Below are positions 31,448-41,161 of a DNA stretch of 64,000 bases, one piece after another. A model generated the notes under the pieces. That model saw nothing but the letters and a program-made list of their open reading frames with translations, was not told where the DNA came from and did not search any database. A program made the position numbers and the translations under genes. The first letter of the stretch is position 1; every line of letters begins with the position of its first letter. Source of the stretch: Schlesneria paludicola DSM 18645 (GTDB lineage: Bacteria; Planctomycetota; Planctomycetia; Planctomycetales; Planctomycetaceae); NCBI RefSeq assembly GCF_000255655.1, contig NZ_JH636436.1, positions 654,985 to 718,984 of the forward strand, written 5' to 3'.

Positions 31448-32644
31448 TCACAACAGATTGACCACTTTGTCGGCGAGTCCCTTATCACCAAGGATGATAT
31501 TGAGCTTTCCGGCCGAAGCGATCTTTTCCAAGACTTCCAACTCGCGCAATCGCATCAGTGTCGGGCTGTCCGCCAGCAGTTTGGCCGTGTTGGCCTGGCT
31601 GCGGATCGCCGCTGTCTCTTCGCGTCGTGCGATCAAGTTCGCCTCGGCAGCCTTGTGAGCTTCCGTGACCTTGTTCATCAGATCCTTCATATCACCCGGC
31701 AGGATCACATCCCGGATACCGACCGAGGCGATCTCCAGTCCCAGTTCACCCGCTCGACGTCGGATGTTGTCCTGGATCTCCTTCGCGACAGCATCCTTGT
31801 CCGTCAGGAAAGCATCGAGTTCGCGCGCTCCCACCACGCCTCGCAGCACGAGCTGCGTGTCGCGGTACAGAGCCTGTCGCACATCGTCGGTCTGGCTGAC
31901 GGCCTTGCGAGCATCAACCACCTTGTAGGTCACGACAGCGTTCAGTCGCAAAGTGACTTTGTCGGCCGTCATGATCTCCTGACCACCAACGTCGACGATG
32001 GTTTCCCGCAGGTCAACTTCAACCAGCTTGGCTTCGGCCGTACCTTTCCAGAACGCGTACTCACCCGGAGCAAGCGAGTCGACATAGCGACCGTCGATGA
32101 AAAGCACGCCCACGTGATCACGCTGGACCGAGCCAACATCCAGGACACGGTTGGCCAGCGCCGAGCGGACAATCACCTTGAACTGTTCGTGCTCAAAGCG
32201 GACCGGTTGAATATCGATGATCTCGACGCGGACTTGCTTCTGGCCCGTCCAGCAGGCGTGCTGACCTGCTGGCAAGACTTGACTGAACCGGTTCTCGATC
32301 CAGACCAATGCTCGCTCGTTGTCCTTCAGGTCCAGGACCACGGCGCGCTCGGCGAGCGCACCAGACTTGATCATCAAGTCCAACTTCTCGTGAACGAGCC
32401 ACGGCTCACGCTGCGACACGACGTCGACACGGACTTTGCCGAATGGATCAAAGAACCAGTGAGCACCAGCCGTGAGCAGGCCTTGAAACTCACCGTCGCG
32501 GAACAACAAGCCCATTTCGTAGGTACGAATCTTGAAACGCTTCAACAGAATCACGGCAGACCTCCTTTCTGGAGGATCAATCAACGGAAGGCATTCTTGG
32601 CCTCGGGAATTCAATCGCTTTGACGATTTAGACGACAAAGACAC
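31448..32644 (-). CDS. SPFH/band-7 (slipin-like) domain protein
   Basis: RFKIRTYEMGLLFRDGEF start typical of slipin-like proteins; coiled-coil C-terminus. Confidence 0.8.
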   Translation of the reverse strand: MSLSSKSSKRLNSRGQECLPLIDPPERRSAVILLKRFKIRTYEMGLLFRDGEFQGLLTAGAHWFFDPFGKVRVDVVSQREPWLVHEKLDLMIKSGALAERAVVLDLKDNERALVWIENRFSQVLPAGQHACWTGQKQVRVEIIDIQPVRFEHEQFKVIVRSALANRVLDVGSVQRDHVGVLFIDGRYVDSLAPGEYAFWKGTAEAKLVEVDLRETIVDVGGQEIMTADKVTLRLNAVVTYKVVDARKAVSQTDDVRQALYRDTQLVLRGVVGARELDAFLTDKDAVAKEIQDNIRRRAGELGLEIASVGIRDVILPGDMKDLMNKVTEAHKAAEANLIARREETAAIRSQANTAKLLADSPTLMRLRELEVLEKIASAGKLNIILGDKGLADKVVNLL

Positions 32645-32958: not shown

Positions 32959-33030
32959 CGTGCTGTACGGGAGTCGAACCCGTGACTGCCAGATTCTCAG
33001 TCTGGTGCTCTACCTCTGAGCTAACGTCAC
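32959..33030 (-). tRNA. tRNA-like gene, anticodon GAG (leucine-type anticodon) but class-I length; acceptor stem with two internal mismatches (possible pseudogene)
   Basis: Good D-arm (GCTC-AGAGGTA-GAGC), anticodon arm (CCAGA-CTGAGAA-TCTGG) and T-arm (ACGGG-TTCGACT-CCCGT). Acceptor GTGACGT vs ACAGCAC has A·G and C·A mismatches. 5-nt variable region. Confidence 0.35.
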
Positions 33031-33134
33031 CAATGACTTCCGGTCAGAACCCATGTTCGGAACAGTCGGAGCAAAACTCTTTCGAGTGCCCCGACCGCCG
33101 CTGGACGGATGACATCAATGCTTTCAATCCAAAG

Positions 33135-33206
33135 AGACACCGGTGGGAGTCGAACCCACTGGATGCGGCTTTGCAGGCCGCCGCCACGCCGTGTGACATC
33201 AGCGTC
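33135..33206 (-). tRNA. tRNA-Cys (GCA)
   Basis: Anticodon arm GCGGC-CTGCAAA-GCCGC; T-loop TTCGACT; acceptor pairs with G·U wobbles; U73 discriminator as in tRNA-Cys. Confidence 0.55.
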
Positions 33207-33216
33207 ATTCAGTCAG

Positions 33217-33287
33217 TGTCCCTGCCAGGAGTTGAACCTGGTCTACGACCTTCGCAGGGTCGCGTGCATCCACCACACTCCAAGGAC
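33217..33287 (-). tRNA. tRNA-Arg (GCG)
   Basis: Acceptor GTCCTTG/CAGGGAC; D-stem GTGT/GCAC; anticodon loop CTGCGAA; T-loop TTCAACT; discriminator A. Confidence 0.6.
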
Positions 33288-33360
33288 AAAATATTGGTTC
33301 TCTCACTCAACGCGAGAACGACCTTCGATGACAAAACATTTGTGATCGCGCACTAAAAAA

Positions 33361-33431
33361 TACCCCACCGAGGAATCGAACCTCGCCCGACTGCTTCGAA
33401 GGCAGCCATGCATCCTTCACACTCGCAGGGC
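33361..33431 (-). tRNA. tRNA-Arg (TCG)
   Basis: Anticodon loop CTTCGAA; T-arm CGAGG-TTCGATT-CCTCG; acceptor pairs with three G·U wobbles. Confidence 0.5.
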
Positions 33432-33441
33432 ATATTTTCAT

Positions 33442-33513
33442 TCTCCCGACCTGGACTCGAACCAGGGCCTGGACCTTCGGAGAGTCCAATGCATTCCGCT
33501 ACAACATCGGGAC
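33442..33513 (-). tRNA. tRNA-Arg (CCG), G1·G72 mismatch
   Basis: Anticodon arm GGACT-CTCCGAA-GGTCC; T-arm CCTGG-TTCGAGT-CCAGG; first acceptor pair unpaired. Confidence 0.45.
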
Positions 33514-33599
33514 AAACAGGGCCGACGACTGGATTCGCACCAGCATGATTCCGCTTACAAGGCGGACGCCTTTCTCGATCGAGCCACGTCGGCAGTCAG

Positions 33600-33670
33600 C
33601 ACGAGCGCGAGGATTCGAACCCCATCCAGCAGTTTTGGAGGCTGCCCGCTCTCCCAGGAGCATCACTCGT
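33600..33670 (-). tRNA. tRNA-Trp (CCA)
   Basis: Anticodon loop CTCCAAA (as in E. coli tRNA-Trp); acceptor ACGAGTG/CGCTCGT; T-loop TTCGAAT; discriminator G. Confidence 0.5.
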
Positions 33671-33754
33671 GTGTTGCGTCCGCAAGGCGGGCACGAAAAA
33701 CATCGCGCGAACGATGAACCCATTCGTAACCCGTCTCGCGACGCGCATGAAAAA

Positions 33755-34402
33755 TCATTCATCCAATTCCACGGTCCAGTACGCCTCACTGAGGAACTTG
33801 GACCAGCTTCCGATCCGAACATCGTGCTGAGCATAGAGCGGTTTCCAGGTTGGACGTGTCGGCACCTTCTGCAACGGCATGTGTGCTTCAGCGGGTGTAC
33901 GATCGGCTTTGCGCAGGTTGCATTCCAGACACGCCAAAACACAGTTCTCCCAGACGCTGGTCCCACCTCGAGATCGAGGCAACACGTGATCGATCGTTAG
34001 GTCTTCTGTTCTGAGACACTCATGGCGCGGGCTGCGTTCGGCCTGTGAATCCCGATTGTCCACGCCGATGAAGCGGCTATGCCGCCCACAGTACTGACAG
34101 GTGTATCGATCTCGTTTGTAGATGTTTCGGCGACTGAATGTGACCGTGTTTGTGGGAACCCGGTCATATTCGGTCAGGGTGATCACCTCCGGCACGCGAA
34201 TCCGAGACGTCACCGACTGGACGAACAGTTCATCGTCCTGTGGGATTCGCTTCGCCCAATCAGCCCAGGTGTGCTGCTGAAAGTCAGCCGGATCGACGAT
34301 TCGTGCCCGTTCCGCAGCCACCAGCGTCAATGAACGTGCCACCGAGGCCACACCCACCGGCTGCCAGTTCCGGTTCAGTACCAGAGTCTGTCGACTCAAC
34401 AT
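33755..34402 (-). CDS. HNH endonuclease (McrA-like)
   Basis: HNH motif (YTCQYCG...IDHVLPRSRGGTSVWENCVLACLECNLRK). Start set at the internal Met (MLSRQTLVLN) so it does not overlap tRNA-His. Confidence 0.7.
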   Translation of the reverse strand: MLSRQTLVLNRNWQPVGVASVARSLTLVAAERARIVDPADFQQHTWADWAKRIPQDDELFVQSVTSRIRVPEVITLTEYDRVPTNTVTFSRRNIYKRDRYTCQYCGRHSRFIGVDNRDSQAERSPRHECLRTEDLTIDHVLPRSRGGTSVWENCVLACLECNLRKADRTPAEAHMPLQKVPTRPTWKPLYAQHDVRIGSWSKFLSEAYWTVELDE

Positions 34403-34434
34403 CGCCACCACGATTTTCTCTTTCTTATGAAAAG

Positions 34435-34509
34435 GGTGTTCGAACGGGATTGAACCGTCACCTTCGGCTTCACAGGCCGACATGCAGAAACCACTACACC
34501 ACGAACACC
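34435..34509 (-). tRNA. tRNA-His (GTG) with encoded G-1
   Basis: Anticodon arm TCGGC-CTGTGAA-GCCGA; acceptor GTGTTCG/CGAACAC; an extra 5' G (G-1) opposite the C73 discriminator, the hallmark of tRNA-His. Confidence 0.7.
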
Positions 34510-34510
34510 G

Positions 34511-34616
34511 CGCCTTCGCGCGAGAAAGTAGACAGTAGAGAGTTGAAAGTAGAACTGGTTCGCGACGCGTCTTGTCTACTCTCTACTTTCAATCAACTAC
34601 TTTCTCGCGCAGCGTG
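34511..34616. repeat. Palindromic spacer repeat family A, copy 1 (begins 2 nt upstream of the tRNA-His 5' end)
   Basis: cgccttcgcgcgagaaagtag...ctactttctcgcgcagcg with ~14-bp outer inverted repeats; related copies at 36741-36838 and 38998-39110. Confidence 0.55.
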
Positions 34617-34706
34617 CGGAAGGAGCGGGAGTTGAACCCGCAAGGCACATTAAAAATGCTCGACCGGCTTCCAACCGGTTCCCGTCACCATTCGGGTTGC
34701 CCTTCC
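34617..34706 (-). tRNA. tRNA-Ser (GGA), class II
   Basis: Anticodon arm ACCGG-TTGGAAG-CCGGT; long variable arm; T-arm GCGGG-TTCAACT-CCCGC; discriminator G. Confidence 0.55.
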
Positions 34707-34719
34707 GTTTTGACTTCAA

Positions 34720-34791
34720 TACCTCGACCAGGAATCGAACCCAGAACTCCCCGTTAGAAGCGGAGCATGATTTCTATTTCACCATCGAGGC
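34720..34791 (-). tRNA. tRNA-Arg (TCT)
   Basis: Acceptor GCCTCGA/TCGAGGT; anticodon arm CTCCG-CTTCTAA-CGGGG; T-loop TTCGATT; discriminator A. Confidence 0.6.
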
Positions 34792-34801
34792 CAAAAACAA
34801 G

Positions 34802-34889
34802 CGGAAGGCAAGGGATTCGAACCCTCATCTCCCGTGAGGGAGAGTCGCGTTAGCAGTGCGGTCCGGCCAACCGTATCCGGCTACCTTCC
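34802..34889 (-). tRNA. tRNA-Ser (GCT), class II, weak anticodon stem
   Basis: Anticodon loop CTGCTAA; variable arm CTCCC-TCAC-GGGAG; T-arm GAGGG-TTCGAAT-CCCTT; discriminator G; anticodon stem has terminal mismatches. Confidence 0.5.
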
Positions 34890-34927
34890 AATATCGAAAA
34901 GTTGAAATGCGTTTGCGCGGCATGGTC

Positions 34928-35416
34928 TCATCGCCGTTTCACGCCAGGATCGGCGAAATGTTCAATTCTTGTATGCCGTCCCGTTTCAATGTCCGCGAAG
35001 ACGTAATTCTCCGACGCGACCGGTGACCCAGCCATCCTCCGGAAAATGCCGATCTGCCCCAAGTGCAGCATCGCGTCCGCAAACGGACCTTGCAGCAGGT
35101 CCTCTTCATTGACATCGCGAATTGAAGACTCGTTGAGAAGTGACGCGTCAAGCTTTGCTAGGATCTCGAAGTAACCAAACACTTCGGCATTCCATGCCAA
35201 CATAGGCGGCTCAGTGGATTCATAGGGAACCATGAACGAATGCGCGTAGATGAGCACACCTCTCATGTGATTGAGAATCTCGCGTGGGCTTCGAACAGAT
35301 TCTGAGGGCCGGAAGTCTGCGATTTCCGGTGGCATATTCCTGAGCACATTGGCTCCGCGATATGCCAGCGCCGACAGAAAGTGCCGCAGCATGTATCTCT
35401 TCGTCGTTGTTTCCAT
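34928..35416 (-). CDS. DinB/YfiT-like four-helix-bundle protein (hypothetical)
   Basis: Start has GGAGAT 5 nt upstream (METTTKRYMLRHF...). DinB_2-like size and His spacing. Weak assignment. Confidence 0.45.
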   Translation of the reverse strand: METTTKRYMLRHFLSALAYRGANVLRNMPPEIADFRPSESVRSPREILNHMRGVLIYAHSFMVPYESTEPPMLAWNAEVFGYFEILAKLDASLLNESSIRDVNEEDLLQGPFADAMLHLGQIGIFRRMAGSPVASENYVFADIETGRHTRIEHFADPGVKRR

Positions 35417-35589
35417 CGTTATCTCCAATTGTTCCCAACGATTCGCCAAAGCGGCCTGTGAACATACTGAGTCGATTGATCCCCAATAGCGTTGAACCAT
35501 CAGTTCCAGCATGTCAGGTTGATGTCGTACTGATTGATCATGACGTCATGATCAATCGAATAACGAAATCTGAGACCTCAATCCAGAAG

Positions 35590-36254
35590 TTATTCCCAGT
35601 ATTGCTCCCACTTGTCGCCGTAAGATTCCTTGAGGCGTTCTAGGTAGACATAAGTCTTGATCTTGCCCATTTGCAAATCGCGGCCGCTTCGTCCTGATTT
35701 GCAAATGACACCCTCGGTGACACCGTATTTCCCGCAACGAACATCTTCGGCGAATGCCCCGGTGAACTTGCCACGGTGAACTTGCCACGGTACACGATTC
35801 GTGCAATCGGAAGATGTCCGAACCGTTCTACGAATTCGAAAGGCCCGAGTAGGTCTTCGTCACGTGCGACATCAAACATGACCAATCGCTTGACATCATC
35901 AAATTTATGTCGCCCAGCGAATGAATTCGCTCCGAGGTATTCAGCAAATGCAGTGAACCCTTGAACTGTGCTTTCCGAGGCCAATTCACTGAACGTGTGG
36001 GCCAAGGACGCGGACAATGTTTGACGAAAAACTTCCATCGCATCCGATAGCTCAGGGTGATCGTGACGAAACAGTTCCTCGCCGCGATCATCAATATTGA
36101 ACTCATCGCGTCGCGTTCCAAACGCATGCCAGCCGAAGTCCCGATCCCAACGGAAATGCAAATTCGTTCCGTCGTATTTTTCGAAAGCTATGCACTCGGT
36201 GAACGGGAAGTCTTTAGTGTTCGGAATCTTGCGGTAATGTAGCGCGGAGGGCAT
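35590..36254 (-). pseudogene. Rnl2-family ATP-dependent RNA ligase (nucleotidyltransferase domain), apparently frameshifted by a 14-bp tandem duplication at 35761-35788
   Basis: Motif I EKYDGTNLHF (cf. T4 Rnl2 EKIHGTNF), motif III-like AFAEYLG, motif IV LVMFDV and RGKF are in the annotated 204-aa frame (35640-36254). Motif V EGVICKSG appears only in the frame restored by deleting one 14-nt unit, which then runs to TAA at 35590. Confidence 0.5.
35761..35788. repeat. Perfect 14-bp tandem duplication (ggtgaacttgccac x2) inside the RNA-ligase coding region
   Basis: Direct reading of the sequence; the unit length is not a multiple of 3. Confidence 0.9.
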
Positions 36255-36343
36255 GGAGGAATCCTGGCTATCGACCTGATCGCTTTTCCTGTTTGCGTAC
36301 TTGGCCGTCTACTTTCACGGTCGGGTGCCTGCCCTGTCTGCAG

Positions 36344-36428
36344 TGACCAAGGGGAGAGTCGAACTCCCAAGCCCACGAGGGGCACGACGTTCTGAGCGTC
36401 GCGTGTCTACCAGTTGCACCACTTGGCC
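36344..36428 (-). tRNA. tRNA-Leu (CAG), canonical class II
   Basis: 3-bp D-stem with 11-nt loop containing GGTAGA; anticodon arm CGACG-CTCAGAA-CGTCG; 16-nt variable arm (GCCC-CTCGT-GGGC); discriminator A. Confidence 0.7.
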
Positions 36429-36436
36429 ATAATCAG

Positions 36437-36509
36437 TGACCCGTGCGGGATTTGAACCCGCGTTGCCGGCATGAGGGGCCAGCATCCTGAACCGCTAGAA
36501 GAACGGGCC
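36437..36509 (-). tRNA. tRNA-like gene with atypical anticodon loop CCCTCAT (C33; anticodon CTC/Glu-like or CAT-like)
   Basis: Good acceptor (GGCCCGT/ACGGGTC), T-arm GCGGG-TTCAAAT-CCCGC, 6-bp anticodon stem; identity unresolved. Confidence 0.35.
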
Positions 36510-36519
36510 GTTGTTCGAG

Positions 36520-36600
36520 TGCGTCGGGCAGGAGTTGAACCTGCACTGCACGAGGCGGGTGGGTTACAGCCACTTGGGCACGCCAATGCCCAGCCGACGC
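36520..36600 (-). tRNA. tRNA-Tyr (GTA), class II
   Basis: Acceptor GCGTCGG/CCGACGC perfect; D-stem GGGC/GCCC; anticodon loop CTGTAAC; 13-nt variable arm; discriminator A. Confidence 0.65.
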
Positions 36601-36664
36601 ATTCTAATTCGCGCTCACGAATATCTTGCAAACGGGTGTCGTTCGCGCGATGCACGTGAGCGAG

Positions 36665-36739
36665 TAACACGGGTGGGAGTCGAACCCACAGACCACGAAG
36701 GTTTGAGCTTCGCCGCTTTGCCGGATTGCGTACCGTGCC
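36665..36739 (-). tRNA. tRNA with CAA (leucine-type) anticodon, Leu-like D-arm but short variable region (class I length, 75 nt)
   Basis: Anticodon arm CGAAG-CTCAAAC-CTTCG perfect; D-stem CGC/GCG with 11-nt loop; variable region only 6 nt; discriminator A. Confidence 0.5.
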
Positions 36740-36740
36740 G

Positions 36741-36838
36741 CGCCTTCTGCGAGAGAGTAAAAGGTTGAAAGTCGCAAGTAGACAAGAATGGATCCGTCTA
36801 CTCTCAACTCACTACCACCTACTTTCTCGCGCAGCGTA
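36741..36838. repeat. Palindromic spacer repeat family A, copy 2 (fills the spacer between two tRNAs)
   Basis: cgccttctgcgagagagta...ctactttctcgcgcagcgtagc; shares the termini of copy 1. Confidence 0.55.
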
Positions 36839-36839
36839 G

Positions 36840-36913
36840 CGTCCTCGATGGGATTTGAACCCACGTCTCCACCGTGACAGGATGGAGAGCATTCCAGGCT
36901 GCTCCGCGAGGAC
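36840..36913 (-). tRNA. tRNA-Asp (GTC)
   Basis: Acceptor GTCCTCG/CGAGGAC perfect; D-arm GAGC/GCTC; anticodon loop CTGTCAC; discriminator G. Confidence 0.7.
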
Positions 36914-37034
36914 TTTTTCACGCGCGATCAAGATGGGAATGGAAATCAGTGTCGACCGCGCGTTGATAATTAACTCACCTCCCAACGCGCGAGTGACTGG
37001 GTCTGCGCAACCCATCACCGACGCGCACTAAACG

Positions 37035-37108
37035 TAGCTCAGGTGGGAGTCGAACCCACAGCATCCCTGGTTCTAAGCCAAGGTGGTCTGCCGATTGCCT
37101 ACCGAGCC
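37035..37108 (-). tRNA. tRNA with TAG (leucine-type) anticodon and short variable region; weak D-stem
   Basis: Anticodon arm CTTGG-CTTAGAA-CCAGG; T-arm GTGGG-TTCGACT-CCCAC; 6-nt variable region; discriminator A. Confidence 0.45.
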
Positions 37109-37121
37109 ATGTCTTGTTTGA

Positions 37122-37194
37122 TGCCCAGAGCGGGATTTGAACCCGCAAACACTCGATCTTAAGTCGAGTCACTCACACGTTGGCGTACCTGGGC
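37122..37194 (-). tRNA. tRNA with TAA (leucine-type) anticodon and 5-nt variable region (73 nt)
   Basis: Acceptor GCCCAGG/TCTGGGC; 3-bp D-stem plus 10-nt loop; anticodon arm CTCGA-CTTAAGA-TCGAG perfect; T-arm GCGGG-TTCAAAT-CCCGC; discriminator A. Confidence 0.5.
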
Positions 37195-37206
37195 ATGTCA
37201 TCGAAG

Positions 37207-37278
37207 TAATCCCGGATGGACTCGAACCATCGTTACCTGGGTGTAGGCCAGGCGTCGTCGCCGCTGGACCACGGGATC
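37207..37278 (-). tRNA. tRNA-Val (TAC) with C33
   Basis: Anticodon arm CCTGG-CCTACAC-CCAGG (position 33 is C); T-arm GATGG-TTCGAGT-CCATC; discriminator A. Confidence 0.5.
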
Positions 37279-37288
37279 AAATAAAAAA

Positions 37289-37359
37289 TGGACTTATCGG
37301 GAATCGCACCCGAATTTTTGGTTTGCAGGACCGATGTCTTCCTGTTGGACCATGAGCCC
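37289..37359 (-). pseudogene. Degenerate tRNA-like element (non-canonical T-loop TGCGATT, acceptor and anticodon-stem mismatches; loop CCTGCAA)
   Basis: Only partial cloverleaf complementarity. Confidence 0.25.
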
Positions 37360-37379
37360 GATTGTTCGTCGCCAGCGAG

Positions 37380-37465
37380 CGGAAGCCGTGGGGCTCGAAC
37401 CCACAAGCGGGATGTTCCCGCCGCCTGTTTTCAAGACAGGTTCCTCATCCGGCCGGATGACTTCC
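37380..37465 (-). tRNA. tRNA-Ser (TGA), class II
   Basis: Acceptor GGAAGTC/GGCTTCC; anticodon arm CCTGT-CTTGAAA-ACAGG; variable arm GCGGG-AACAT-CCCGC; discriminator G. Confidence 0.6.
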
Positions 37466-37477
37466 GTAATCTGTAAA

Positions 37478-37551
37478 TTGTGGGAGTTGGAATCGAACCA
37501 ACGCCTCCGGGTTCAGAGCCCAGCATCGCCACCAGCAGCGACTATCCCGCA
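37478..37551 (-). tRNA. tRNA-Gln (CTG)
   Basis: U1-A72 first pair as in tRNA-Gln; D-stem GTCG/CGAT; anticodon arm CTGGG-CTCTGAA-CCCGG; one C3·A70 mismatch. Confidence 0.55.
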
Positions 37552-37627
37552 ATGAATTTGATTGAGACAAGACACTCGTACTTTCCAAGGGTTCGTGTGC
37601 TACCGTGGTTCTCGGTAAACTGATGGA

Positions 37628-38101
37628 ATGGATGTGAACTGTGCCAAGCAGATGTTCTTTGCCTACGACGGGTCGCGTTTCTACATGTCGCGAAACGGAG
37701 ATGAGGACAAATACGCTCAGATGCAGGTCCCAGCATCGATCGAAGCACAATGGTTGGATGAGTTGACATCTCGCAAACTCGATCAACTCATTTCTTCGGC
37801 AAATTGGATGGTTGTACATTTTCTCCTTCATCATTCCGACTTCCGCCAATTGGACCGACTCGCCGCAGCTGCGCCATTGGGAACTCTTCAGGAGAAATGT
37901 GCATTTCTTGAGGAACTCCTAAAATATGTACAGCAATGTTGTGGAGCATATGAGTCCAGTCGTCTCGCTAACGTTTGCGATTCAATTCTTCGAGATGCAT
38001 TCACGTTGCGAAAGCGGGCTCGGGCGAAGAATTCCCTTGCTCGAATTGAACGCCTCGTCGAGAACGCCGAAAAGTTTGTCGCGACGTTGCTCTCAGATTG
38101 A
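37628..38101 (+). CDS. Hypothetical protein (157 aa) in a lower-GC segment inside the tRNA array
   Basis: Intact ORF on the opposite strand to the array with no overlap with tRNAs; no recognisable motif. Confidence 0.4.
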   Translation: MDVNCAKQMFFAYDGSRFYMSRNGDEDKYAQMQVPASIEAQWLDELTSRKLDQLISSANWMVVHFLLHHSDFRQLDRLAAAAPLGTLQEKCAFLEELLKYVQQCCGAYESSRLANVCDSILRDAFTLRKRARAKNSLARIERLVENAEKFVATLLSD

Positions 38102-38104
38102 TGA

Positions 38105-38178
38105 ATTGCGGGGGCAGGAATCGAACCTGCGCCTCCGGGGTCAAAGCCCAGCATCGCTGCCAACAGCGACTACCCCGC
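38105..38178 (-). tRNA. tRNA-Gln (TTG)
   Basis: Acceptor TGCGGGG/CCCCGCA perfect with U1-A72; anticodon arm CTGGG-CTTTGAC-CCCGG; T-arm GCAGG-TTCGATT-CCTGC. Confidence 0.7.
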
Positions 38179-38185
38179 AATGGAA

Positions 38186-38257
38186 GAGGGACGGGTGGGA
38201 CTCGAACCCACGCGCTGGTGCTTAACAAACACCTGCTCTGCCGCTGAGCTACCGACC
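38186..38257 (-). tRNA. tRNA-Asn (GTT), T4·T69 acceptor mismatch
   Basis: D-arm GCTC-AGCGGCA-GAGC; anticodon arm GGTGT-TTGTTAA-GCACC; T-arm GTGGG-TTCGAGT-CCCAC. Confidence 0.55.
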
Positions 38258-38264
38258 CAATCGA

Positions 38265-38336
38265 GAGTGCCCTGCGGGAATCGAACCCGCCTGTCCAACT
38301 TGGAAGGCTGGCACCTCTGCCGATCGGTCAAGGGCA
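38265..38336 (-). tRNA. tRNA-Gly (TCC)
   Basis: Acceptor GTGCCCT/AGGGCAC perfect; anticodon arm CCAGC-CTTCCAA-GTTGG; U73 discriminator. Confidence 0.65.
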
Positions 38337-38359
38337 CATATTCTTTCCTCAAGTCGGAA

Positions 38360-38491
38360 GCCGTGGGACTCGAACCCACAATCCCGATTCTCGGGACACC
38401 TGCTTTCGAGCGTTGTACATCTATCGCGGCTTCAGCCTTCATCCTCGCTTTCGCTCGGCCGCAGGCCTTGCTTCCAGCCGGATGACTTCCA
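38360..38491 (-). tRNA. tRNA-Ser(CGA)-like gene with a ~50-nt insertion between anticodon-stem position 31 and the loop (intron-like or disrupted)
   Basis: Ends match tRNA-Ser(TGA) at 37380-37465 (GGAAGTCATCC... / ...GTGGGTTCGAGTCCCACGGCTTCCG). Stem CCTGC/GCAGG encloses the 50-nt insert followed by a canonical loop CTCGAAA. Variable arm TCCCG-AGAAT-CGGGA intact. Confidence 0.3.
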
Positions 38492-38634
38492 TTCGTGTTA
38501 AGGCTGCGGCGACAGGAATCGAACCATCAACCGAAGCCGCTGGCCGAATAGGTCAGTTGAAGGCGAAGGGCGATAGTCTTTCAAATCCGAGTCGCCTGCC
38601 CGTACCAACACGGACTCCACCGCAATTTATATCA

Positions 38635-38708
38635 GTCAGCGCGGTCGGATTTGAACCGACGATCTCGTGGTCCCAAGCCACGCGGATTTCCATGCTTTCC
38701 CACACGCT
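38635..38708 (-). tRNA. tRNA-Pro (TGG)
   Basis: C1-G72 first pair and A73, typical of tRNA-Pro; anticodon arm CGTGG-CTTGGGA-CCACG; T-arm GTCGG-TTCAAAT-CCGAC. Confidence 0.7.
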
Positions 38709-38768
38709 GACAATCGTTCATCGCGGATCGACCTTCGTTGTCATCAAGGATCGTCCACGCGAACAAAA

Positions 38769-38839
38769 AAGCACCCAGCGGGAGTTGAACCCGCACCTCC
38801 GCCTTGGCGAGACGGTACGCTGCCGCTACGTCATGGGTG
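38769..38839 (-). tRNA. tRNA-Gly (GCC) with C33
   Basis: Acceptor GCACCCA/TGGGTGC perfect; D-stem ACGT/GCGT; anticodon loop TCGCCAA; U73. Confidence 0.5.
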
Positions 38840-38923
38840 CATGCATTCCTGGCCGAATTGTTAAAGACCTATTCGCAACGCGCGATTGGCCAAGTTTGTG
38901 AACTCGCTTCATCGCGCATGAAA

Positions 38924-38995
38924 AAGCACCGGGTGGGACTCGAACCCACGTTGCCGTATTACGGGTGCGGTGTCTTGGCCGCTAAACGACCAGTG
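38924..38995 (-). tRNA. tRNA-Thr (CGT) with C33
   Basis: Acceptor GCACTGG/CCGGTGC; D-stem GTTT/AGAC; anticodon arm CCGCA-CCCGTAA-TACGG (one mismatch); T-arm GTGGG-TTCGAGT-CCCAC. Confidence 0.45.
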
Positions 38996-38997
38996 CA

Positions 38998-39110
38998 GCG
39001 CCTTCGGCGAGAAAGTAGAGAGTGGAAAGTCGTGAGTGGACAAGAACCGATCCGTCTACTTTCCACTCTCTACGGACTATTCTCTCTGTCCCGGCACGCC
39101 GGGACAGAGA
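38998..39110. repeat. Palindromic spacer repeat family A, copy 3, plus a 13-bp hairpin (ctctctgtcccgg/ccgggacagagag) that overlaps the 3' end of tRNA-Lys(CTT)
   Basis: cgccttcggcgagaaagtagagagtggaaagt...actttccactctctac has a perfect 16-bp inverted repeat. It starts 3 nt upstream of the 5' end of the preceding tRNA. Confidence 0.55.
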
Positions 39111-39179
39111 GACCAGACGGACTTGAACCGTCACTTGCTCGGGTAAGAACCGAGTGTGCTGCCACTAACACCTTGATCC
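39107..39179 (-). tRNA. tRNA-Lys (CTT)
   Basis: D-stem GTGT/GCAC; anticodon arm CTCGG-TTCTTAC-CCGAG perfect; T-arm GACGG-TTCAAGT-CCGTC; acceptor with two G·U wobbles. Confidence 0.6.
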
Positions 39180-39196
39180 CGTAATCCTTCGTTCAG

Positions 39197-39268
39197 TTAG
39201 GCCTGGGCGGAGTTGAACCGTCGTCTGGCCCTTATAAGGAGCCTGCTCTCATCGTTGAGCTACAGGCC
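39197..39268 (-). tRNA. tRNA-Ile (TAT)
   Basis: Canonical D-arm GCTC-AACGATGA-GAGC; anticodon arm GGCTC-CTTATAA-GGGCC; A73. Confidence 0.55.
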
Positions 39269-39277
39269 CAGTAATCA

Positions 39278-39349
39278 ATGGGGCCGGAGGGATTCGAACC
39301 CCCACCGGGCAGATTAAAAGTCTGCTGTGCTGCAGTTACACCACGACCC
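39278..39349 (-). tRNA. tRNA-Lys (TTT)
   Basis: Acceptor GGGGTCG/CGGCCCC; anticodon arm GCAGA-CTTTTAA-TCTGC perfect; T-loop TTCGAAT; A73. Confidence 0.65.
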
Positions 39350-39410
39350 CGGATGAGGACGTGGTTCCATTTGTTCGTGAGGTCTCGATCCATAATCTGC
39401 ACCTTGTTCA

Positions 39411-39481
39411 ATCGCTTGGAGTGGAGTTGAACCACCGCTGTCGCCGTATCAGAACGACGTGCTTCCGTTACACCACCAAGC
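39411..39481 (-). tRNA. tRNA-Ile (GAT)
   Basis: Acceptor CGCTTGG/CCAAGCG perfect; anticodon loop CTGATAC; T-arm GGTGG-TTCAACT-CCACT; A73. Confidence 0.6.
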
Positions 39482-39623
39482 GGAGTCGGGATGGTCAGAA
39501 TCGAACTGACTGTGTTCAACTACCGCGGCCCGGCCTTCATCCTCGCTATTCGCTCGGCGTCATTCCTTACTTCTCAGCTACCAGCCCGGAAATGACAGAA
39601 CTTTGACTTCGTCAAAACGAAGA

Positions 39624-40153: not shown

Positions 40154-41161
40154 TTAAGCCCAGATGCCAATCGGCTGACCTTTTTTGTAGTTCAAGAACG
40201 CTTGCAGCGAAACACGCGGACCGCCCTTAAAAGGGATCACAGCGTGGGGCCTGCCTGTGTTGATGATGACGGCATCACCACTTTTGAGCTCGATTCGAAT
40301 GGGGGGCGGAAGAAGCTTTTGGAAACGTAGCTGCAATTCTTCGTTCTGATAATTCGATTCAAGGAAAAAGTGTTTGACGGAATGCCAATGACCGATTGCT
40401 TCATGCATCGTGGTGATTTGAGGATTCCACAGATAGAGATGACCACCAATTTCGGGTTGCTTCAGGTACACATTCAACGAGAACTGGCCCGAATTGCTAC
40501 TGAGCAGTGGTGAACTATCCACATGGCACCCCAATGACGTTTCCGTAACGGTCTCAGTATTGTCGTACATCACCCGCACAAGCCCGGGTGACATTTTACA
40601 GCCCTTATAACGGGCAACAGTCATGCCATCATCCCATAGCTCATCGACCATGATGCGAAATTTGTCATAGGGAGAAACGTACGGCGCCGCCATGCTTCGT
40701 AGTTTCTCGGATGTTGAGATGGCGTTTTGAAAGTAGCGATGCCAGCTTTCGTCGCTCTTATTGGCCATACTGAATGGCTCGCCAAAGACATTGACATCAC
40801 TGGGTTTGAACTCGGTTTTCAGATCGTAGATATTCCAGTTCTCAAGTTTTTCTTTCAGGATGTTTGTCGTCATCCGTTCGCAGACTTCAGCCGTGCAGAA
40901 CGCGGGAAGGTGAATTGCCAGAATGCGATTAGTAAATAAATCTCGCAGCAATTCCGATGACAGCCGGTCCGTTTTGACAATTCCGGACCCATCCGAGGGC
41001 ATCGTTTTCCCGGCAGTCAGTTGTTCCATCGGCCAGAGCAAGCACTTCATGATAGGGGTGCGAAGGATTCGTCCGATCAATGGAATGGTGCTAGCTGGTC
41101 GCGGAGGAACTTTCATGATGCTCATCGTCGATCGATTCTTTCGGGCTTCAGTCCGCGCCAC
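40154..41161 (-). CDS. 2OG-Fe(II) oxygenase-like protein (hypothetical) in an AT-rich segment
   Basis: HxD...H...RxS-like arrangement (LGCHVDSS, GRPHAVIPF, RVSLQAF). Codon usage and GC differ from the flanks. Start uncertain. Confidence 0.45.
   Translation of the reverse strand: MARTEARKNRSTMSIMKVPPRPASTIPLIGRILRTPIMKCLLWPMEQLTAGKTMPSDGSGIVKTDRLSSELLRDLFTNRILAIHLPAFCTAEVCERMTTNILKEKLENWNIYDLKTEFKPSDVNVFGEPFSMANKSDESWHRYFQNAISTSEKLRSMAAPYVSPYDKFRIMVDELWDDGMTVARYKGCKMSPGLVRVMYDNTETVTETSLGCHVDSSPLLSSNSGQFSLNVYLKQPEIGGHLYLWNPQITTMHEAIGHWHSVKHFFLESNYQNEELQLRFQKLLPPPIRIELKSGDAVIINTGRPHAVIPFKGGPRVSLQAFLNYKKGQPIGIWA

Follow-up and report, generated by a model that had tools for sequence, protein, structure and literature searches.

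The window considered here is a stretch of 64,000 nucleotides from Schlesneria paludicola DSM 18645 (NCBI RefSeq assembly GCF_000255655.1, contig NZ_JH636436.1, positions 654,985 to 718,984 of the forward strand), which contains a long, dense array of tRNA genes; several of these genes have a cytidine (C33) in place of the near-invariant uridine (U33) at position 33 of the anticodon loop. The array comprises 32 tRNA genes in 6.5 kb of the minus strand (32959–39482), or ~4.9 genes per kb. ARAGORN at its default threshold detected 31 tRNA genes in the window, 30 of them on the minus strand within these bounds, and Rfam adds two. Having at least 20 tRNA genes, at a density of at least two per kb, in one orientation and at a spacing compatible with co-transcription, the array is an L-array in the sense of Santamaria-Gomez et al. 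(2021; PMC8421152)—a long array of supernumerary tRNA genes, horizontally spread and often found beside a homing endonuclease—or, in a related term, a tRNA array unit (Tran et al., 2016; PMC4758250). The phyla recorded as having such arrays include the Planctomycetes (PMC8421152). The composition is non-periodic and covers 18 amino acids; the missing Met and Phe tRNAs sit at the syntenic place in related arrays. An HNH gene lies inside the array, and syntenic arrays occur in Planctomycetota genomes, metagenomes, and an IMG/VR contig, as expected of a horizontally transferred element. Five array members carry C33, and they are listed here with a tRNA gene from outside the array that serves as a control within the window:

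36436–36509, minus strand: tRNA-Glu(CUC), loop CCCTCAT, C33 at 36476; ARAGORN, and Rfam at 46.3 bits
37206–37278, minus strand: tRNA-Val(UAC), loop CCTACAC, C33 at 37246; ARAGORN, and Rfam at 55.2 bits
37289–37359, minus strand: tRNA-Ala(UGC) with G3:U70, loop CCTGCAA, C33 at 37328; Rfam at 43.1 bits, ARAGORN only at -ps90
38770–38840, minus strand: tRNA-Gly(GCC), loop TCGCCAA, C33 at 38809; ARAGORN, and Rfam at 56.9 bits
38925–38996, minus strand: tRNA-Thr(CGU), loop CCCGTAA, C33 at 38964; ARAGORN, and Rfam at 46.3 bits
31058–31132, plus strand: tRNA-Val(GAC), outside the array, canonical, loop TTGACAT, U33; ARAGORN, and Rfam at 71.2 bits

A preliminary description of the locus had reported C33 in the Val(UAC), Gly(GCC), and Thr(CGU) genes and in one unassigned member. 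ARAGORN and the Rfam model RF00005 both give all four a seven-nucleotide anticodon loop with C33. Refolding with a covariance model, which that description had proposed as a check, returned the ARAGORN register for each of the four tRNAs, and posterior probability was high across the anticodon loop; the same model was used to look for a U33 register with a better score, which would undo the observation, and none was found. Because the two methods agree on the register, the fourth gene can also be named: its C33 stands, while its unassigned status gives way to tRNA-Glu(CUC). The fifth gene, Ala(UGC), lies inside the span that had been reported and is absent both from the preliminary description and from the ARAGORN output at the default threshold.

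All five genes fold into a cloverleaf with four stems and score above the RF00005 gathering score of 29 bits (43.1–56.9 bits, with array members spanning 34.6 to 63.3 bits). Each has a seven-nucleotide anticodon loop with the expected purine, A37; none has the near-invariant U33, a deviation at a conserved position that is no bar to membership among tRNAs. The T-loop residues G53, T54, T55, C56, A58, and C61 are present in the Glu, Val, Gly, and Thr genes. The T-loop of Ala(UGC) deviates (TGCGATT), with G55 in place of the near-invariant U55, and this deviation is shared by the C33-bearing Ala(UGC) lineage. The anticodons (CUC, UAC, UGC, GCC, and CGU) include no CAU, and no initiator features are present. 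That some other fold would place a U at position 33 is a vanishingly improbable reading: no support for it was found, though the CAT triplet within the Glu loop CCCTCAT could suggest a shifted reading. ARAGORN and Infernal agree, the CC-type loops have no U at all 5′ of the anticodon, the closing pair 31–39 covaries in the array Val tRNAs, and the stems of the Glu orthologs change in compensatory fashion around a constant seven-nucleotide loop.

The number of C33 genes in the window array exceeds chance. The share is 5 of 32 tRNAs, as against 1 of 161 when the same scan was applied to seven unrelated arrays, namely the L-array of the Anabaena delta plasmid, those of three actinophages, and those of three IMG/VR contigs. 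C33 as a trait of tRNA arrays at large was rejected on the same counts (Anabaena delta plasmid 0/24, actinophages 1/104, IMG/VR contigs 0/33).

Related arrays were retrieved in several ways (L numbers denote the loci). A genome-collection search with a 204-residue, weakly RNA-ligase-like protein encoded within the array returned 32 loci from several phyla, of which only L027 and L031, both Planctomycetota, adjoin a tRNA array. A second query, the 5′ half of the Glu tRNA, recovered 61 metagenome and two viral-contig stretches, most of which are tRNA arrays; this pattern stops short of the anticodon arm and so takes no account of position 33. A pattern based on the Thr tRNA added L105, an array that neighbors serine recombinase genes on a 94-kb IMG/VR contig. 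In total, 55 related arrays share a common gene order, making 56 loci with the window; their sources are two Planctomycetota genomes, metagenomes, and one IMG/VR contig. The conserved order runs Ile-Lys-Ile-Lys-Thr(cgt)-Gly(gcc)-Pro-Asn-Gly(tcc)-Gln-Gln-Ser-Ala-Val-Leu-Leu-Asp-Leu-Tyr-Glu-Leu(cag) and onward, and the gene order of the window is common to L105, L063, L094, L049, and L057. The 56 loci form one array family. Besides the HNH and SPFH genes (and the ligase-like query gene in L027 and L031), no protein is common to the arrays.

At least one C33 tRNA is present in 51 of the 56 loci. Among 682 distinct tRNAs of the family, position 33 is U in 581, C in 97 (~14%), A in two, and G in two. 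Since ARAGORN at its default threshold under-detects C33 tRNAs, corrected counts were obtained with the -ps90 setting and an ortholog filter, and C33 is distributed over the isoacceptors as follows (distinct sequences):

Glu(CUC): C33 in 25 of 29
Leu(GAG): C33 in 13 of 17
Val(GAC): C33 in 10 of 17
Pro(GGG): C33 in 6 of 7
Val(UAC): C33 in 7 of 21
Thr(CGU): C33 in 7 of 16
Ala(UGC): C33 in 5 of 21
Tyr(GUA): C33 in 5 of 22
Gly(GCC): C33 in 3 of 21

No C33 was seen among the distinct family sequences for Lys, Ile, Asn, Met, Phe, Trp, Arg, or Leu(UUR), and the copy of Leu(GAG) in the window has U33. The window Glu(CUC) gene has C33 orthologs in 34 other loci; Val(UAC) has them in nine others, with U33 orthologs in 18; Thr(CGU) in five (L042, L048, L049, L063, and L105); Ala(UGC) in four (L036, L046, L063, and L094); and Gly(GCC) in L042 and L063, with U33 orthologs in 19 loci. 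One locus, L063, carries exactly the same five C33 tRNAs as the window. Because the matching genes of dozens of related arrays share it, C33 is best described as an inherited trait of the family, attributable neither to misreading nor to decay private to this genome. The preliminary description had raised a lineage-specific feature as one option; the recurrence of C33 in the same isoacceptors of syntenic arrays bears this out, the lineage being that of a horizontally mobile array family rather than demonstrably that of the host.

The Tyr(GUA) tRNAs with C33 have the loop CCGTAAC and occur in L051, L064, L074, L086, L089, L093, L052, and L066; most were missed by ARAGORN at its default threshold. 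In a tRNA with this anticodon, C33 would delete the U33-G34-U35 element recognized by tRNA-guanine transglycosylase, and, on this general knowledge, the Tyr(GUA) tRNAs with C33 may lack queuosine.

Comparison among orthologs indicates that the C33 tRNAs retain their structure. In an alignment of 37 array Val sequences, 18 of them with C33, 99.3% of paired cells are occupied by base pairs and 13 of 20 pairs show compensatory change; none of 500 shuffles reached the observed values, and slid controls fell far below them. The closing pair 31–39 is variously GC (16 orthologs), CG (11), UG (5), or UA (4), and four of the five anticodon-stem pairs have compensatory changes. The Glu orthologs likewise fall into two compensatory types of anticodon stem, GCTGGC/GCCGGC and GCGAGA/TCTCGC, around a constant CCCUCA loop. 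At the other invariant positions, 88% of C33 tRNAs show no deviation at all, as compared with 59% of U33 tRNAs. The load of stem mismatches in the window array is mid-range for the family, and substitutions at position 33 are nearly all to C, with 97 C as against four purines among the 682 distinct tRNAs.

These observations bear on whether the C33 genes could be pseudogenes in a silent, acquired array, with C33 as one lesion among many. L-arrays are often poorly expressed, and three of the 26 genes of the Anabaena array were judged to be pseudogenes (PMC8421152). Other non-canonical features are also present in the array tRNAs: base 8 is not U in ~31% of them, a figure for which the indexing is approximate, and G55 occurs in 25 of 649. 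Private stem mismatches in the window Ala and Thr genes, detailed below, and a Ser(CGA)-like gene with a 50-nucleotide insert point the same way. However, C33 is common to orthologs across dozens of arrays while their stems change by compensation, and the smaller number of other deviations in C33 tRNAs than in U33 tRNAs, the preference for C over purines at position 33, and the mid-range mismatch load of the window array all argue against decay, which we consider improbable. The suggestion in the preliminary description that the copies are non-functional is accordingly disfavored, the cloverleaf being kept by compensatory changes and the C33 tRNAs deviating less elsewhere than their U33 neighbors.

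The restriction of position 33 to pyrimidines would also fit post-transcriptional editing, in which C33 is deaminated to U33 and the mature tRNAs are canonical. C-to-U editing in anticodon loops occurs elsewhere, with position 32 as the target in the tRNATyr of Vibrio cholerae and the tRNAThr of trypanosomes; position 33 is not known to be edited in bacteria. Pfam, PHROG, and defense-system scans found no deaminase domain in the array open reading frames (ORFs), and the arrays have in common no protein other than those named above. Moreover, the hosts of the arrays differ, and the enzyme would have to be present in every one of them. Editing is, on these grounds, a very improbable explanation.

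The history of position 33 was reconstructed on neighbor-joining trees of the isoacceptor families. The position changes one to four times per family, with ~29 changes in total; the small number of changes per family suggests that C33 has mostly been inherited, yet has arisen repeatedly. The frequency of C33 differs with anticodon base 36, at 31.6% for C, 14.6% for G, 3.9% for U, and 5.3% for A, so that C33 is some five times commoner with G or C at base 36. The inferred changes follow the same direction, with 21 of 29 in tRNAs that have G or C at base 36 as against ~50% expected (p = 0.014, on trees of very short sequences). U33 contacts nucleotide 36 in the loop, and codons starting with A or U require both a well-formed loop and a t6A or i6A modification of nucleotide 37 (PMC5041475); the trend at base 36 fits these known contacts and modification needs. 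Three other propositions about the pattern were tried and set aside. An apparent rule that C33 never accompanies weak anticodons (1/202) proved to be partly an artefact of the ARAGORN default threshold, since Tyr(GUA) has C33 in 5 of 22 sequences with -ps90 and the ortholog filter. An apparent lack of reversion inside the C33 clade was circular, the C33 sequences having been preselected, and was not used. Mutational pressure toward G+C was rejected because the C33 fraction of an array and the G+C content of its spacers are uncorrelated (rho 0.18, p 0.26).

Taken together, these data suggest that the five C33 genes are probably genuine members of a horizontally mobile L-array, in which C33 is an inherited trait of particular isoacceptors and is tolerated in working auxiliary tRNAs. 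Under this interpretation, the supernumerary tRNAs would be transcribed with the array; host enzymes would supply them with CCA and an amino acid, and they would then decode their normal codons. At the turn of the anticodon loop, C33 would take the place of U33, a pyrimidine there sufficing for function, as in yeast tRNALeu(GAG). An auxiliary set is expected to be under weaker constraint than the housekeeping tRNAs, such that a U-to-C change at position 33 could fix and then be inherited, mainly where base 36 makes a G:C pair with the first base of the codon. We infer the expression, charging, and decoding that elongator function implies. The case for function is one of analogy: in the Anabaena L-array, 23 of the 26 tRNAs carry amino acids in vivo, and every one that was tested associates with polysomes (PMC8421152), and in yeast tRNALeu(GAG) the functional effects of the natural C33 are minor (PMC13492127).

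Several observations weigh against tolerated C33 in working tRNAs. Under-detection of C33 tRNAs by ARAGORN makes the family counts approximate. The link to base 36 is a trend only, given that C33 is found in Thr(CGU) (7/16) and Tyr(GUA) (5/22), and the event counts behind its p value of 0.014 rest on the neighbor-joining trees mentioned above. The E. coli TsaBCDE enzymes add no t6A to a U33C tRNA (PMC8887486), so the C33 form of Thr(CGU) may go without a modification that ANN codons normally require. The window Ala copy has two private G-to-A changes, which produce C·A mismatches at 28:42 and 6:67, and the Thr copy has one, which produces a C30·A40 mismatch; at least these two copies may be drifting. 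Finally, the alternation of U and C among close orthologs fits near-neutral change and diversifying selection alike.

The last of these points leads to the main rival of tolerated C33, namely adaptive escape. C33 would here have been selected because it removes the uridine needed by an enzyme acting on the anticodon loop, whether an anticodon nuclease of a toxin–antitoxin or defense system or a modifying toxin; that this drove the substitutions is possible, although unlikely. Equally unlikely in our view is the sequel, in which the array supplies cleavage-resistant back-up tRNAs when the housekeeping tRNAs come under attack. In favor of escape, C33 is isoacceptor-specific, alternates with U33 in close orthologs, and arose repeatedly (~29 inferred changes); a weakly RNA-ligase-like gene lies in the array; one related array sits on an IMG/VR contig beside serine recombinase genes; and in Tyr(GUA) the substitution would remove the transglycosylase element U33-G34-U35. 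For phage tRNAs, substitutions in the anticodon loop have been proposed as a means of evading VapC, PrrC, and colicin-type nucleases (PMC10264068), mycobacterial tRNA arrays have been discussed as putative anti-defense elements (PMC12803027), the Anabaena L-array is induced under translational stress along with RNase toxins and RtcB (PMC8421152), and bacterial t6A addition is blocked by C33 (PMC8887486). Nonetheless, no nuclease with a requirement for U33 was identified in the window or in related loci, and a defense-system scan of the ORFs of the island returned no match beyond the HNH and 2OG domains. For at least one anticodon nuclease, the gamma-toxin of K. lactis, a U33C change in a stem-loop leaves cleavage at the wild-type level (PMC2275089); a decoding constraint explains the preference for G or C at base 36 more simply; and the ligase-like gene is mostly located away from tRNA arrays. 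It is rather doubtful that the C33 subset is adaptive in the full sense, as back-up tRNAs invisible to U33-requiring anticodon nucleases or to t6A and queuosine enzymes. If this were true, the array would constitute a toxin-resistant reserve translation set spreading between bacteria, and possibly phages, and the switching between U and C would be the trace of an arms race. After adaptive escape, pseudogenization is disfavored, editing is without support, and a register artefact is excluded.

Comparison with known systems places the window array among L-arrays in most respects. As in those arrays, dozens of non-periodic tRNA genes are tightly packed on one strand in an island-like chromosomal placement, an HNH endonuclease of homing type lies in or beside the array, and relatives occur in different hosts and on a contig classed as viral. 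The array of Anabaena PCC 7120 differs in having U33 in 24 of 24 tRNAs detected by ARAGORN and a different gene order, and its expression and charging are known, whereas the window family is known here from its genes. Position 33 is absent from the two papers that describe such arrays (PMC8421152 and PMC4758250), and no tRNA-array paper mentioning U33 or C33 was found among the top-ranked full-text matches. L-arrays and natural C33 tRNAs are each known, and a connection between arrays and position 33 was not found in the literature matches inspected.

The preliminary description regarded C33 as known mainly from the initiator tRNA of eukaryotes, in agreement with PMC5041475, but left out yeast tRNALeu(GAG). 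For altered decoding, another option raised in that description, the published precedent is this same yeast tRNA, in which the effects were only minor (PMC13492127). Like the window genes, yeast tRNALeu(GAG) is a natural C33 elongator; it reads a codon starting with C, is non-essential and partly redundant, and differs little when C33 is changed to U33 (PMC13492127). Leu(GAG) is also among the most frequent C33 carriers in the array family (13/17). The yeast example is a eukaryotic, single-gene case, whereas arrays of the family have up to five or six C33 isoacceptors each. The eukaryotic cytoplasmic initiator tRNAMet shows that C33 can occur in a functional tRNA and can alter recognition by the t6A enzymes (PMC5041475, PMC8887486), but the five window tRNAs have no CAU anticodon and the Met tRNAs of the family all have U33. 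Phage tRNAs resemble the array in being auxiliary sets on mobile DNA with deviations in the anticodon loop (PMC10264068); their deviations do not involve position 33, and the three actinophage arrays have C33 in only 1 of 104 tRNAs. The tRNASer(CAG) of Candida, as cited in PMC5041475 and PMC13492127, is another natural elongator without U33, but its G33, a purine, is described there as distorting the loop and lowering decoding, and purines at position 33 make up only 4 of 682 sequences in the array family.

The array itself is interrupted by protein genes at 33671–34433, 34890–36342, and 37553–38104, which encode an HNH endonuclease, a 194-residue ORF, the 204-residue ligase-like protein, and a 157-residue ORF on the opposite strand. 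The remaining annotated features of the array are:

33361–33431, minus strand: tRNA-Arg(UCG) with U33, detected by Rfam only and missed by ARAGORN at its default threshold
33755–34483, minus strand: HNH endonuclease gene of homing-endonuclease type (Pfam HNH, 3.7e-13; phrog_16726, 1.7e-34)
35640–36254, minus strand: 204-residue, weakly RNA-ligase-like protein (Pfam RNA_ligase, E 1.5e-3, below the curated cut-off; phrog_548, 1.1e-6)

The HNH ORF overlaps the tRNA-His gene at its 5′ end, so its true start is probably farther downstream. Homologs with 52–61% identity lie inside the arrays L057, L064, L069, L075, and L094, and the HNH protein beside the Anabaena array is 29.5% identical. The ligase-like gene adjoins a tRNA array in three of 33 loci, the window included (the others being L027 and L031), and an association of this gene with arrays was rejected because it is mostly located elsewhere. 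Its product shows no similarity to the RNA ligase of phage BRock, and no solved relative was found. Between Leu(cag) and Ser(gct), related arrays hold the genes Met-Met-Leu(gag)/Val(gac)-Thr-Ala-Ala; in the window, two protein ORFs (the ligase-like gene and the 194-residue ORF, 34889–36343) replace these tRNA genes, which explains the lack of Met in the window array. A Phe tRNA gene, which L105 and L057 have at the upstream end of their arrays, is likewise missing from the window array.

One flank of the array carries GFO/IDH/MocA oxidoreductases, ApbE, AhpC, and a HisA/F-like gene, and the other carries HypB, HycI, and NiFe hydrogenase and maturation genes; the array is thus inserted among ordinary chromosomal genes, probably in a planctomycete, to judge from the best homologs of the ligase-like protein and from the two sister arrays borne by genomes. 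The island comprises the tRNA array with genes for a band-7/SPFH protein (31448–32644), the HNH endonuclease (33755–34483), and the ligase-like protein (35640–36254), all on the minus strand. ORFs beside the arrays L094 and L075 match the SPFH protein at 84% and 79% identity, respectively. Band-7, HNH, and RNA ligase categories are also annotated beside the tRNA clusters of actinophages BRock, A3Wally, and Boopy (L106–L108); similarity between the island and actinophage proteins is weak or absent, and the resemblance is an analogy only. Nucleotide searches of the array against phage and plasmid collections gave single-tRNA matches only. Just upstream of the array, a 335-residue ORF (40154–41161, minus strand) has a 2OG-Fe(II) oxygenase-like C-terminal domain (PADLOC "2OG", 5e-9; weak Pfam WelO5), and a 12-bp hairpin lies between this ORF and the array (39654–39623, minus strand). 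A scan for promoters and terminators found nothing over shuffled expectation except this hairpin.

Other array members are unusual in ways that do not involve position 33. A Ser(CGA)-like tRNA gene (38350–38492, minus strand), 79% identical to Ser(UGA) at 37379–37465, occupies the syntenic place of Ser(cga) in L063 and L094; an insert of ~50 nucleotides separates its nucleotides 31 and 32, at the 5′ side of the anticodon loop. A group I intron would be longer, which leaves an insertion or an unknown kind of intervening sequence. A 48-nucleotide element, GCCGAGCGAA(A/TA)GCGAGGATGAAGGC(TGAA/CGG)GCCGCG(A/G)TAG, is found twice on the minus strand, at ~38411–38465 and ~39510–39560. The first copy is the insert of the Ser(CGA)-like gene; the second lies in a tRNA-like sequence at the upstream end of the array (39483–39590), which consists of a T-arm plus acceptor stem and has no Rfam match. 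The 14-nucleotide core of the element, GCGAGGATGAAGGC, had no exact match in the 97 loci fetched. An imperfect palindrome of ~95 nucleotides, with 36-nucleotide arms GCGCGAGAAAGTAGA...TCTACTTTCTCGCGC, occurs three times in spacers between tRNA genes (34518–34610, 36747–36832, and 39005–39095); it may act as a hairpin in processing or termination, or it may be a miniature mobile element. Four leucine-anticodon tRNAs (GAG, CAA, UAG, and UAA) are only 72–76 nucleotides long (32959–33030, 36664–36739, 37034–37108, and 37120–37195, minus strand) and have no long variable arm of the kind that defines bacterial tRNALeu; Leu(CAG), at 86 nucleotides, has the arm. The Anabaena array likewise includes leucine-anticodon tRNAs without it.

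Few nucleotides in biology are as conserved as U33, and elongators that naturally lack it are textbook rarities. The array family therefore amounts to a natural mutational experiment on the need for U33, with dozens of matched U33/C33 ortholog pairs that are open to tests of decoding, of t6A and queuosine modification, and of sensitivity to anticodon nucleases. Several C33 genes escaped ARAGORN at the default threshold, so under-annotation of such tRNAs is probable. A further question on which the result has a bearing is whether long tRNA arrays serve as functional reserves or are junk, and C33 would matter more if it were proven to be a device for evasion.

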